From Callorhinchus milii (taxonomy: Eukaryota), in NCBI RefSeq assembly GCF_018977255.1, contig NW_024704743.1, positions 5,892,001 through 5,956,000 of the forward strand: a stretch of DNA of 64,000 bases, in the 5' to 3' direction. A program made the translations under genes and the position numbers. Below are positions 20,804 through 44,908 of the stretch, in pieces; positions within the stretch are counted from its first letter, which is position 1; each line of letters begins with the position of its first letter. The notes beneath the pieces are model-generated. The model did not search any database. It was not told the DNA's origin and saw only the letters and a list, made by a program, of their open reading frames with translations.

Positions 20804-20926
20804 TCAGGAAGAACAGCTGACACGTAGCTCTCTAGCCCACAAAGGCGGACGACTAGAATAACCTGCTTCCTCTGCTTCTCTCTGCTTGTGAAAAGGATGG
20901 CGCAAAGTCTTCTGCAGAAGGTGAAC
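20804..20926 (-). CDS. SelO-like exon 19 (terminal)
   Basis: [43 protein letters not shown]. Confidence 0.95.
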   Translation of the reverse strand, partial: VHLLQKTLRHPFHKQREAEEAGYSSRPPLWARELRVSCSS

Positions 20927-23900
20927 CTGTTATACAAAACAAGTAATAATTCTGATTTGTCATAATAATTCGTAAGCCACAAATCCAGTAACAGACCGCG
21001 CTTCCTTAACCAGTAAATATCAGTAGTATTACCTCAGAAAAATCATCTCTCTCCGATTTCTTGATTGCAGACTCTGCCATCCAGTTGCGGAGAACGTACC
21101 TTGGGTTGGTACCTTTAACCAGAAAAAATAAGGGCCTTCAAACAGGGTTATGCTTCATGGCCCCCTATCTGCCCCTCCATCACCAGGCTAGCATTCTGCA
21201 ATTCTGACCCACTTTCTGAACTCCATCCCAGAGTCCCCGACTTGTTCCCTCCCTCCACTCGTTCAAGGCCCCATCTCACGGCATAAGTCTTTGATCATGC
21301 TTCAGTCAACTTTCTCCTCCCAACACCCTTCGGCACCAAGCCCCAGCTCAAGCATCTCAGCCACCAGTGTCAAGTGCTTTGAGACATCCTTCGGATGTGA
21401 AATGTACGATACATATGTAAATTGTATTGCATTGACATATACACGTAGGTCAAATAGTTGCACGTTCAAACCATTGGAAGAAAATAATCATGCAATATGC
21501 AGCCTAAAGTAAGAGAGCAACTTAAAAATATACTTACTTTTCATTCTGAATCTCCTTGCCTTATCTGAATCCTTATCTGAGTTCCTACAAGAAATATTTG
21601 TTCAGATCAATGTTTTCAGTAAATTACATTATCCGGTTTTTTTTGCAGTGGCAGTGGGACCTTTATTTTACTTTTAAAAATGTTATATTGAAAATGTCTC
21701 CTTTTTTCCTCCCTCTGTAGGTCACTTTATGGTGTGGAACATTTTCCACCATATTAAATGTTTTCTGCACAAGCAACCTACACCGAGGCCTCCATCATTG
21801 CTGCTCTGTGACTCACATCTAACTAATCCTCTGATTTTCCTTTCTCTGCATCAGGAAATAGCTACAACACAATAAAGACTGGGTATTTACATAGACTTTG
21901 CAAATTTGTCACCTACTAATCATAGAAATGTGCAGCACAGAAGACCATTTGGCCCATCATCCCATAACTTCATGAACTTTCACCCATGGACCTCCATATC
22001 GCTACACAACAACAACTTGCATTTATATATCTCCCTTTACACAGGGTAGCTTCCCGGAGCACTTGACAGTGGCGGAGTCTGACCCCGAGTCAGGGGAGAG
22101 GGAGGGGGGAGGTGACAGTAAGCACGATCAAAAAGGAAGGACTTCAGGCGGGATTTGAAAATCAGGAGGGAGGGGCAGGGCGGAGGGTTTGAGGGAGAGA
22201 GTTCCAGAGTTTTTGGGTGTAGTGGCTGAAGGTACGGCCAGCAATGGTGGAACGGAGGGGAAAAGCTATGAACAGGATGCTGGAGCCTGCTGAGCGGAGG
22301 CAGTGGGTGTGGGAGTGGACGGTAAGCAGATTGGATAGGTAGGGAAGTGCGAGGGCATGAAGGGATTTGAAAACGAGTGAGAGGATCTTGAATTTGATTC
22401 AACAACAACAACAAGATTCCATTTATAGAGCGCCTTTCACGTCAGGAGGACGTCCCAAGGCACTGTACAGTTGGGATTGGGAGCCAGTGGAGCCTGGCAA
22501 GAACTGGTGTGATGGGGGTACAGAGTTTTGTGCGGGTGAGAATCGGAGTTCTGAATTAGTTGTATATTGTGTATGTTGGAGTTCGTTTTCAAATCCCTTC
22601 ATGCCCTCGCACTTCCCTATCTTTCCGACTTGCTCGCCCTCGATTCCACCACCCGCTGCCTCCGCTCGCCTGGCTCCGGCCTCCTGTTCATCCCTTGCCC
22701 CCTCCGCTCCACAATCGGTGGCCGTGCTTTCAGTCACCACGCCCCGAAGTGCCGGAATTCTCTCCCCTAATCCCTCCACTTTGCCTCCTCCCTCCCTCCC
22801 CACTTTCAAATTTCACCTAAACCCGTTGCTTTTTGATCATGCTTACGGTCATCTCCCTCTCCCTTTGGCTCGGGGTCACACTATGCCACTGGTAAGTGCT
22901 CCAGGACACTACCCGGCATGAAGGCCACTGTGTAAATGTAAGTTGTTGTTGTTGTATACACATGTGAGGAATATAATAATAATAATAATATAATAATAAT
23001 TATCCTTGAGCTCTAACCACTGAGCCTCAGGACTCCACATTCTGACATTTTAAGAATTTAGCAATTAAAAAATAATTCATCCCACAACACTCCACGGACC
23101 CAGGCCAGGCAAAAGCAAAGTGTTATTTAAAGAAAGCCTAAAGCCCAAAGATATTGCTGTACTGTCTACCAAATATAGCCCTGGCTACATATTTACAATG
23201 TGCAGAACAAAGTGAATAGGAACAGACAGGAATTATGTCTGGATCCAACATCCACCAGGGTTAAACCGACCTCCACAGGATTATACTGACCTCCACATCT
23301 GAAGTTGCTGTAATTGCAAAAGTGGATTATTGGATACAAAGATATAGAGATTAGTCTTGTTATAATGTGGGAAATGGATACCCACAAATGACTCTAAAGA
23401 ATACAGAACAACACACAAATATCCTCACCTCTTCAACCTGGACAGATACAAATTAACCCAGTGGGAGAAGAATTCATGTCTTCCAAGCTGTTGAAGAGCC
23501 CAGAATTCCTAGACCAAAATACAATTAAGCCTTCTACGTTAGAATCTCTATGTTTAATGTAAAAAAAAGTAGATAAATTGCAATTCTTTTTTCAAACTAT
23601 TTTATGAAAACAAATAAAATCTTGAAAGCATAAGTAAATAGATTAAATTTAAATGATGTTTCAAACAATAATAATCCCTGCATTTTTAATATAACACCAT
23701 ATCGTATCGAGAATGTCTCAAAGCTCTTCAAAGGAATTTGTTTGTTTGAATACAGCAGACAATGTGCGCGTAGCAATGTCCCACAAACAATGACAAAGTG
23801 CAAGCAAAAGTCAAAATGATCTGGAGATTGTTGGCCAAAACACTGGAAGAAACTTGCTTCTTTTTTGAATAAAAATGTTTAACATCTATTCCTAATCCTT

Positions 23901-44900: not shown

Positions 44901-44908
44901 GGAAGCAT
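20804..44908 (-). CDS. SelO-like (YdiU/UPF0061 family) protein adenylyltransferase pseudokinase, Cys-type paralogue, 19 coding exons, 1752 nt, 583 aa
   Basis: All 18 introns GT-AG and phase-consistent, with no internal stop. Motifs: [95 protein letters not shown]. Confidence 0.95.
21033..21112 (-). CDS. SelO-like exon 18
   Basis: [27 protein letters not shown]. Confidence 0.95.
21538..21584 (-). CDS. SelO-like exon 17
   Basis: [16 protein letters not shown]. Confidence 0.9.
22003..22955. mobile_element. Cluster of L2 3' fragments in both orientations
   Basis: Two minus-strand (CAA)n tails at 22003 and 22401, one plus-strand tail at about 22953. Confidence 0.85.
23429..23508 (-). CDS. SelO-like exon 16
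   Basis: [26 protein letters not shown]. Confidence 0.92.
24079..24397 (-). mobile_element. tRNA-derived SINE nested in a Deu-type SINE (about 23890-24570)
   Basis: Family match; flanks AACTCCCTTCTC / CTTTTCAAATAGTGCCATGGGATCTTT rejoin as a Deu domain. Confidence 0.9.
25480..25572 (-). CDS. SelO-like exon 15
   Basis: [31 protein letters not shown]. Confidence 0.94.
26082..26163 (-). CDS. SelO-like exon 14
   Basis: [28 protein letters not shown]. Confidence 0.93.
26960..27340 (+). mobile_element. L2 3' fragment
   Basis: [26 protein letters not shown]; (GTT)n tail. Confidence 0.88.
28649..28693 (-). CDS. SelO-like exon 13
   Basis: ttccag|G...AA|gtatgt; [15 protein letters not shown]; phase 2>2. 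Confidence 0.88.
30054..30183 (-). CDS. SelO-like exon 12 (activation loop)
   Basis: [43 protein letters not shown]. Confidence 0.93.
31152..31235 (-). CDS. SelO-like exon 11 (catalytic loop and DYG motif)
   Basis: [28 protein letters not shown]. Confidence 0.96.
32213..32285 (-). CDS. SelO-like exon 10
   Basis: [24 protein letters not shown]. Confidence 0.94.
32397..32466 (-). CDS. SelO-like exon 9
   Basis: [24 protein letters not shown]. Confidence 0.92.
34449..34536 (-). CDS. SelO-like exon 8
   Basis: [29 protein letters not shown]. Confidence 0.94.
34652..34719 (-). CDS. SelO-like exon 7
   Basis: [23 protein letters not shown]. Confidence 0.93.
35517..35615 (-). CDS. SelO-like exon 6
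   Basis: [33 protein letters not shown]. Confidence 0.95.
36282..36338 (-). CDS. SelO-like exon 5 (ATP-binding Lys)
   Basis: [19 protein letters not shown]. Confidence 0.95.
36532..36884 (+). mobile_element. tRNA-derived SINE
   Basis: Family match. Confidence 0.9.
36959..37023 (-). CDS. SelO-like exon 4 (Gly-rich loop)
   Basis: [21 protein letters not shown]. Confidence 0.95.
37919..38047 (-). CDS. SelO-like exon 3
   Basis: [43 protein letters not shown]. Confidence 0.95.
38270..38872 (+). mobile_element. L2-clade LINE 3' fragment
   Basis: [31 protein letters not shown]. Confidence 0.88.
39203..40243. mobile_element. Old non-autonomous hAT/Charlie-like DNA transposon
   Basis: Ends CAAGGATGGCCAA and (rc) CAGTGTTGTCCAA; subterminal CCACATGTGG and TGTGGCTA motifs; 8-bp flanks CTCCATAG / CTCTACAG. 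Confidence 0.6.
39725..40075 (-). mobile_element. tRNA-derived SINE nested in a hAT-like element
   Basis: Family match. Confidence 0.9.
41485..41603 (-). CDS. SelO-like exon 2
   Basis: [40 protein letters not shown]. Confidence 0.92.
42386..43325 (-). mobile_element. L2-clade LINE, 5'-truncated
   Basis: [35 protein letters not shown]; 3' tail. Confidence 0.95.
43506..44005 (-). mobile_element. CR1-clade LINE 3' fragment
   Basis: [21 protein letters not shown]; same 3' tail as the 54270 copy; other tails near 6758, 19340-19520, 26420-26790. Confidence 0.9.
44689..44908 (-). CDS. SelO-like exon 1
   Basis: First in-frame ATG (A at -3); [23 protein letters not shown]...[12 protein letters not shown]; donor G|gtaaag, phase 1. 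Confidence 0.75.

Follow-up and report, generated by a model that had tools for sequence, protein, structure and literature searches.

Callorhinchus milii carries, on the minus strand of a 64,000-nucleotide (nt) stretch of contig NW_024704743.1 (positions 5,892,001 to 5,956,000; hereafter the window), a gene for a protein of the SelO type, and the question it raises is whether its product is a second version of the mitochondrial enzyme SELENOO or a SelO enzyme with an address of its own. Its position in the family tree identifies the gene as SELO2, a paralogue of SELENOO that is ancient and not a selenoprotein, named in 2012 as branch 2 of the eukaryotic SELO tree (Dudkiewicz et al., PMC3281104; papers are cited throughout for those of their passages that were available). 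The gene is known and its locus ordinary, and what may be new is a secretory address: on balance, the product looks to us like a luminal or secreted SelO-type enzyme that transfers adenosine monophosphate (AMP), possibly also an NAD+ hydrolase (NADase). The most informative part, a signal-peptide-like N-terminus followed by a stalk with an N-glycosylation sequon, was absent from an earlier note on this DNA.

Family placement

The predicted protein matches the profile PF02696 over aa 94-550 with 404.4 bits (cut-off 22.8). Of the 22 matches from a genome search with it, 17 fall at this locus and the other 5 at a single locus on another contig (C5), and SELO2 is single-copy in C. milii. The C5 locus is canonical SELENOO, lying elsewhere and built from fewer exons, as the earlier note had it: its 9 exons reproduce 649/649 residues of the database protein, and its tail reads TGA-TCT-TCA-TAA, with Ser-Ser-stop behind an in-frame TGA. 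P0144, the database protein, stops at this TGA (L008:5735-5752), like most canonical rows. SELO2 ends in TGT-TCT-TCC-TGA, with Cys and no selenocysteine (Sec) UGA.

Identity between the two proteins is 44% (213/483), against 67-68% between SELO2 and its lemur and cat orthologues, and 2/8 introns of SELENOO coincide with 2/18 of SELO2. In trees built with FastTree (175 rows) and IQ-TREE (quick tree, LG+G4, 47 rows hand-picked from about 400), SELO2 grouped with shark, fish and tetrapod 'SelO-like' proteins, then with unnamed and insect proteins and Capsaspora (Shimodaira-Hasegawa-like approximate likelihood ratio test, SH-aLRT, 97-98), separate from a canonical clade of 13 proteins (SH-aLRT 98). 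A clade joining vertebrate SELO2 to vertebrate SELENOO, which we named after seeing the trees and following what the earlier note had given as refuting its view, was rejected by the approximately unbiased (AU) test (p-AU 4.14e-07). The note's placement of the protein outside canonical SELENOO was borne out; its notion of a vertebrate-level paralogue was not, the clade being older and including Capsaspora.

The gene agrees with the SELO2 of the 2012 paper in being a metazoan paralogue without Sec, with a plain Cxx tail and distant from SELO (PMC3281104). The groups given there, birds, carnivores, horse and ruminants, are covered by orthologues of the C. milii protein, but SELO2 is called missing in primates and rodents, where we found it full-length in lemurs, lorises, galago, squirrels, kangaroo rats and chinchilla; the Capsaspora and insect proteins of our clade likewise go beyond that account. 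Among the matches listed (best 120 of 7981, at most 15 members per cluster; the absence of simians and murids was not used), the other named orthologues came from sharks, rays, sturgeon, tarpon, mackerel, amphibians, reptiles, birds, monotremes, marsupials, carnivores (including cats), horses, whales, bats, rabbit and tree shrew. Judged by these sequences, the C. milii genome is not special in this respect, SELO2 being intact in many mammals (lemurs, lorises, squirrels, rabbit, cats, whales, bats). The tarsier orthologue (P0012) has 538 aa, where those of lemurs and lorises have 587-591, and C92 is missing from it. This suggests a copy that is either mis-modelled or decaying, close to the lineage in which the gene was lost.

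The teleost SELENOO2/SelO2 of other authors (PMC3316567, PMC13134290), left out of our tree, shares only the name, since it is a Clupeocephala duplicate among selenoproteins whereas SELO2 here is the older Cys paralogue. In the present sense SELO2 appears, within the open literature searched, only in the 2012 paper, whose available passages give neither its localisation nor its function. The earlier note's picture of a little-studied second vertebrate SelO holds in so far as its substrates are unstudied, and falls short in that the gene had been named in 2012 (PMC3281104) and is annotated in RefSeq.

Active site and fold

SELO2 holds the SelO core motifs of the earlier note: GQLGDGRA (aa 162), LQLKG (aa 185, with K188), REFLCSE (aa 210, with E211), HGVCNTDN (aa 329) and DYG (aa 345). 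In an alignment to E. coli YdiU, with the residues named for that enzyme (bioRxiv 10.1101/692707), the equivalent pairs (YdiU/SELO2) are Y71/Y152, Q75/Q156, F76/F157, R87/R168, K107/K188, R116/R197, D119/D200, G120/G201, E130/E211, R170/R258, R177/R265, N244/N333, D246/D335, N247/N336 and D256/D345. All active-site residues named there are found in SELO2 except M117, whose position is variable and holds H198. Each mapped residue is kept in 130-134 of 134 SELO2 rows, the misses being mostly gaps. The phosphate-binding set (R168, K188, R258, R265) and base-binding D200 and G201 are complete, as are the migrated catalytic Asp and metal ligands (D335, N336, D345), E211 and N333. With this degree of conservation, SELO2 is probably catalytically competent. 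The equivalent of YdiU R87 is Arg in 133/134 SELO2 proteins and Ala in 106/111 canonical metazoan SELENOO proteins (in exon 1, L007:6705-7174); at this site, as far as residues tell, the active site of SELO2 is more bacterial-like than that of canonical SELENOO.

An AlphaFold model from a 118-row alignment reached a predicted local distance difference test score (pLDDT) of 91.4, with aa 1-49 disordered or unplaced. Foldseek aligned it to structures of NAD-bound YdiU and SelO with template modelling (TM) scores by target of 0.91-0.95 (E 8e-43), and all 9 matches with E <0.001 were YdiU/SelO. YdiU and P. syringae SelO (6K20, 6LNA, 9JYM, 9L29, 6EAC) are 37-39% identical to SELO2 and share its VSCSS tail, whereas SELO2 adds a putative N-terminal signal and stalk of 75 residues. 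With canonical SELENOO, a mitochondrial selenoprotein that transfers AMP (AMPylation) and hydrolyses NAD+, SELO2 shares the PF02696 fold, the catalytic Lys, Glu, Asp, Asn and Asp and the terminal (C/U)-S-S. It differs in having Cys for Sec, a hydrophobic N-terminus rather than a basic presequence and 19 rather than 9 exons, and in lacking about ten Cys conserved there, including that of the activation loop.

The SCSS tail is present in 129/134 orthologues and its Cys in 132/134. NAD+ hydrolysis by SelO requires this terminal Cys/Sec, while AMPylation does not (commentaries PMC13391479, PMC13443136); both activities use one pocket (PMC13443136), and alkaline pH and Mn2+ activate the NADase (PMC13391479). 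YdiU also transfers uridine monophosphate (UMP), and a disulfide between its C272 and C476 has been reported (10.1101/692707). The C272 position (361) is Pro in 132/134 SELO2 and Cys in 104/111 canonical proteins, so that this disulfide cannot form in SELO2. In the catalytic loop, F337 stands for YdiU M248 and C332 for M243; Cys332 occurs in 131/134 SELO2 and 0/111 canonical proteins and is, speculatively, a candidate for a new redox partner or sensor. Pairing of C92 with a stalk Cys was considered and dropped, as C92 is missing in 14/122 proteins that have a stalk Cys and co-variation gave no support.

Putative signal peptide and stalk

N-termini were compared in proteins no shorter than 480 aa, 135 of SELO2 and 111 canonical, among which 124 and 74, respectively, begin with a Met-started extension that is 25 aa or longer. 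Among these extensions, 74/124 of SELO2 and 5/74 canonical ones reached an 11-residue hydropathy of at least 2.0 at their best. On de-duplicated extensions of 25-100 aa, an unverified von Heijne-type weight matrix gave scores of at least 3.5 in 79/98 SELO2 against 5/70 canonical proteins, and of at least 6 in 34 SELO2 (10.3 expected from shuffles) against 2 canonical proteins (4.8 expected), with a median predicted cleavage position of 23.5; the C. milii protein scored 4.84 after S21 and 4.59 after G23. The two sets of N-termini differed with a Mann-Whitney p of about 1e-21, kinship uncorrected.

The stalk behind this segment is marked by an excess of sequons. N-x-S/T occurs in 115/123 SELO2 extensions (shuffled mean 42.9, maximum 58 in 1000; reversed motif 58/123) and in 18/74 canonical ones (shuffled 26.5). 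The excess persists in stalks thinned to <60% identity (33/37, shuffles 14.1) and to <45% identity (16/19, shuffles 7.7, maximum 15 in 5000). The middle residue of the sequon is of 14 kinds and its flanks comprise 13-17 residue types; in cartilaginous fishes the sequon stands at another place, with Thr. No membrane segment follows the N-terminus (19-residue hydropathy median 1.33), and the SCSS tail is not a retention signal for the endoplasmic reticulum (ER). Searching the ESM Atlas with aa 1-76 gave low-score, unnamed matches only. From the N-terminus and stalk together we infer that SELO2 probably enters the secretory route.

The pattern varies within and around the clade. Mackerel, two unnamed Logan proteins and Capsaspora combine hydrophobic N-termini with a C-N-T-D-N-F loop; two butterfly and two unnamed members have more basic N-termini and lack this loop. 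Mayfly, butterfly and two unnamed proteins (P0267, P0269, P0423, P0522, P0530) fall inside the SELO2 clade, and the 2012 paper states that insects have no SELO (PMC3281104). Four of them have basic, presequence-like N-termini and lack C332 and F337, which suggests that these four may have been retargeted to mitochondria. Three unnamed SelO proteins outside the clade (P0274, P0280, P0371) carry strongly hydrophobic N-terminal segments and 5-8 sequons, and may represent separate occasions on which a SelO was recruited to the secretory route.

Possible functions

Taking these parts together, we give a probability of about 0.5 to the following reading. SELO2 would be a SelO-fold AMP-transferase and NAD+ hydrolase that acts in the ER lumen or extracellularly, and so either a luminal AMPylase additional to FICD or an NADase that is secreted; it is a protein which ranges from Capsaspora to most vertebrates, has been lost in some mammals including our own species, and has a rewired redox switch (C332 and C581 for C272-C476). 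It may have been overlooked because the gene is missing from the usual model mammals and bears the mitochondrial enzyme's name in databases. Residues 1-21 would act as a cleavable signal peptide taking the chain into the ER, the flexible stalk (about aa 22-55) would be N-glycosylated, and the SelO kinase-fold domain (about aa 60-583) would work within the secretory lumen or extracellularly. ATP, which the ER lumen contains and on which FICD draws there, would be bound in the flipped SelO orientation through R168, K188, R258 and R265, with Mg or Mn held by N336 and D345, and D335 would activate a Ser, Thr or Tyr of luminal proteins for AMP transfer. C581 may allow NAD+ to be split to yield nicotinamide mononucleotide (NMN) plus AMP; the C272-C476 switch would be gone with P361, and C332 is, speculatively, its possible new partner or a sensor.

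Such an enzyme would share its proposed compartment and reaction with FICD, the ER-luminal AMPylase, which has the Fic fold, and its proposed compartment with the secretory-pathway kinase Fam20C, which transfers phosphate. Reviews, in the passages available, count FICD, resident in the ER, and the mitochondrial SelO as the two AMPylases of metazoans, and AMPylated proteins of the lumen have led to talk of unknown transferases. A secretory SelO was not found in the open literature searched, including the available part of PMC10211241; subscription papers, the supplements of PMC3281104 or automatic UniProt signal-peptide annotation may already note it. If true, the reading places both kinase-fold AMPylation and the recently reported hydrolysis of NAD+ in a compartment new to them. 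We take the human SELO2 copy to be a pseudogene; in that case SELO2 cannot explain human luminal AMPylation, and the question becomes what was lost. The symbol SELENOOLP occurs once, in a gene table (PMC12519442). Two candidate names were set aside: the clone RP13-16H11.2, possibly SELENOOLP, is listed near ABI1, and zebrafish si:dkey-14d8.7, which one paper describes otherwise, was not tied to SELO2, so that its pancreatic co-regulation was left unused. SELENOOLP itself presumably lies in the human APBB1IP-PDSS1 interval and may be the lost counterpart of SELO2, as the earlier note proposed.

A number of observations weigh against a secreted, active enzyme. The N-terminal statistics draw on an unverified matrix and on a vertebrate-heavy set of orthologues related by descent, and their p-values overstate independence. 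In C. milii itself the h-region is weak (hydropathy 1.45, below the 1.63 of its own SELENOO), and simple hydropathy and charge fail to separate the two paralogues; eutherian SELO2 N-termini hold several Arg and are open to other readings. As to the stalk, 3/19 thinned stalks lack a sequon, the third residue in tetrapods is Ser in 90/90 and never Thr, which purely sequon-driven selection would not require, anchoring of the sequon at the tetrapod site is circular, and a gain of sequons in the catalytic domain was not found (0.27 vs 0.22 per 100 aa). Ancestral sequons also lie in the active site, at N336 and N362 (133 and 134 of 134), and glycosylation of N336 would abolish the binding of metal. 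L369 (30149-30151) replaces an Arg present in 128/133 orthologues and 108/111 canonical proteins, and this unusual Leu recurs in the other C. milii records compared. The gene adjoins a mitochondrial coenzyme-Q gene head to head; vertebrate SELO is predicted mitochondrial, with SELO2 not set apart, in the available passages of PMC3281104; and reports of SELO2 activity were not found in the open literature searched.

Some of these points fit a secretory protein that is not an AMPylase, namely an enzyme that is mainly a luminal or extracellular hydrolase of NAD+ or nucleotides, or a muted binder with N336/N362 glycosylated or C581 oxidised. The terminal Cys is kept in 132/134 proteins though dispensable for AMPylation, the active-site sequons are there, and the fold is known for several chemistries, among them the activated NADase and UMP transfer by YdiU. 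A dead enzyme is argued against by metal and phosphate ligands that are near-invariant across vertebrates, whose divergence spans about 450 million years, and AMP transfer and NAD+ hydrolysis, taking place in one pocket, are not exclusive. We consider this account improbable, if still to be reckoned with.

Also unlikely, and ranked just behind it, is the view that SELO2 is one more SelO of mitochondria (or the cytosol). It would back up SELENOO without depending on selenium, AMPylating redox enzymes and hydrolysing NAD+ in the matrix, and its hydrophobic N-terminus would be an unusual or dual targeting signal. The substitution of Cys for Sec in an intact tail would suit this view, as would the divergent arrangement with the gene of a polyprenyl synthase (1.6 kb between the ATGs), the basic presequence-like N-termini of four clade members of arthropod-type lineage, the general mitochondrial prediction of the 2012 paper and a loss in some mammals easy enough to be consistent with redundancy (PMC3281104). 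Yet vertebrate SELO2 N-termini are sharply unlike canonical SELENOO presequences, and an excess of stalk sequons would be functionless in a matrix protein. The idea of a recent duplicate or decaying SELENOO copy without a separate role, which could appeal to three departures from near-invariant positions and to two annotated in-frame isoforms without catalytic exons, is already refuted as far as tree and conservation can tell, given 44% identity to the genome's own SELENOO against 67-68% to lemur and cat, only 2/8 canonical introns shared, rejection of the joint vertebrate clade (p-AU 4e-7) and spliced transcripts.

Gene structure and transcripts

Exons were located by a six-frame motif scan and a splice-site scan, and the resulting model reproduces what the earlier note had described: 19 exons of 45-220 nt with compatible phases, running from 44908 to 20804 (Table 1). 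All 18/18 introns are GT-AG and measure 106-3437 nt, and the coding sequence of 1752 nt gives 583 aa and one terminal stop. Repeats make up 23% of the window, and none of the exon bases lie within them. A search with exon 3 led to a 583-aa C. milii protein identical to the model at 581/583 residues, and the cluster of 9 around it includes RefSeq XP_007899359.2 (P0138; 'protein adenylyltransferase SelO'), which equals the model at 583/583 residues. This identity excludes a chance chain of exons and means that the gene is real and already annotated, not hidden as the note had it. The note's further claim that the frame has no lesions holds for premature stops and frameshifts, while the protein departs from other SELO2 at 3/248 positions conserved in at least 95% of 133 orthologues (M148, T226, L369); other C. 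milii records have Leu at M148. We regard SELO2 as almost certainly intact and expressed.

Expression was read from 4/13 runs compared with 25401-45400, all of them contigs from two studies whose RNA status is guessed. Splice support comes from contig pieces; the junction table is dominated by repeats, with no SELO2 intron among the rows listed. In single contigs of runs X4 and X6 the pieces of exons 1, 2 and 3 adjoin, so junctions 1-2 and 2-3 are directly seen, and the contigs continue to exon 6 after a gap of 122 nt (exons 4 and 5 total 122 nt) and then to exon 8. In a 2170-nt contig of run X3, 852 nt separate exons 1 and 12, the exact sum of exons 2-11, and 688 nt follow exon 12, exons 13-19 coding 550 nt; in a contig of run X6, exons 12 and 15 stand as far apart as expected. 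The junction support that the earlier note had proposed seeking for all 18 introns thus consists of two junctions seen and the remaining ones up to exon 15 backed by length, not individually; introns 15-18 (exons 16-19) lie outside the stretch compared.

Met1 is the first in-frame ATG past an in-frame stop. A start at M62, which would give a signal-less form, was rejected because Met is not conserved there among the N-termini compared. Within 300 nt upstream (44909-45208) lie five ATGs, the two in-frame ones closed by a stop, and one upstream open reading frame of 38 codons terminates ahead of the main ATG; these elements may restrain translation. Annotated in-frame isoforms X2 and X3 lack exon 5 (with K188) and exon 6 (with D200-E211), respectively, and should be inactive.

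Table 1. Parts of the SELO2 gene in the window, in transcript order (UTR, untranslated region)
Feature	Position	Strand	Basis or remark
5' UTR, unspliced, continuous with exon 1	44909..45205	-	contigs reach 45203-45205, end at exon-1 donor 44689
Exon 1 coding, aa 1-74, putative signal peptide and stalk	44689..44908	-	spliced to exon 2 in contigs of runs X4, X6
Putative signal peptide, aa 1-21	44846..44908	-	predicted from weight matrix, hydropathy
Stalk N-glycosylation sequon N56-L-T58	44735..44743	-	stalk sequon in 115/123 orthologue N-termini
Exon 2, aa 74-113, SELO2-typical C92	41485..41603	-	model, contigs
Exon 3, aa 114-156, Y152, Q156	37919..38047	-	model, contigs
Exon 4, aa 157-178, GQLGDGRA loop, R168 (= YdiU R87)	36959..37023	-	model, YdiU alignment
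Exon 5, aa 178-197, K188 (= YdiU K107), R197	36282..36338	-	model; absent from isoform X2
Exon 6, aa 197-230, D200, G201, E211	35517..35615	-	model, contigs; absent from isoform X3
Exon 7, aa 230-253	34652..34719	-	model
Exon 8, aa 253-282, R258, R265 (= YdiU R170, R177)	34449..34536	-	model, contigs
Exon 9, aa 282-305, sequon N297-M-T	32397..32466	-	model
Exon 10, aa 306-330, H329	32213..32285	-	model
Exon 11, aa 330-358, catalytic loop C332, N333, D335, N336, and D345 (= YdiU M243, N244, D246, N247, D256)	31152..31235	-	model
Exon 12, aa 358-401, P361 (for YdiU C272), L369 (for near-invariant Arg)	30054..30183	-	model, contigs
Exon 13, aa 401-416	28649..28693	-	model
Exon 14, aa 416-443	26082..26163	-	model
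Exon 15, aa 444-474	25480..25572	-	model, contigs
Exon 16, aa 475-501	23429..23508	-	model
Exon 17, aa 501-517	21538..21584	-	model
Exon 18, aa 517-543	21033..21112	-	model
Exon 19 coding, aa 544-583, Cys(TGT)-Ser-Ser-stop	20804..20926	-	model; no selenocysteine codon
Candidate polyadenylation signal, first AATAAA after the stop (945 nt downstream)	19854..19859	-	predicted from position

Neighbouring features

The earlier note had placed the gene between APBB1IP and PDSS1. On the left this is supported by an exon lying some 8.5 kb upstream of the window, whose best match is RIAM/APBB1IP (E 1.8e-17; next RAPH1, 7.3e-15), and we take a proline-rich frame ending at 6588 to be the last coding exon of APBB1IP, from its position; the window exon at 352-466 had no PDB match. 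On the right, matches to PF00348 (for one exon above the cut-off) and to solanesyl diphosphate synthases come from three exons of the plus strand at 52.4-58.5 kb, and by these matches the neighbour is a polyprenyl synthase gene, presumably PDSS1 rather than PDSS2, a name that we take from its DDxxD motif. It stands head to head with SELO2, the ATGs (44908 and, likely, 46539) being 1.6 kb apart, and the two genes possibly share a promoter. A purine-rich tandem array of 33-bp units (45670-46292) and a CpG-rich stretch (46-48 kb) lie between and beyond the two ATGs. Six Rfam tRNA matches of 39-51 bits (4150-4221, 4273-4333, 10590-10654, 15058-15130, 24328-24392, 57743-57809) are most likely the heads of tRNA-derived short interspersed elements, and reverse-transcriptase-like fragments also occur in the window, for example at 43100-43290.

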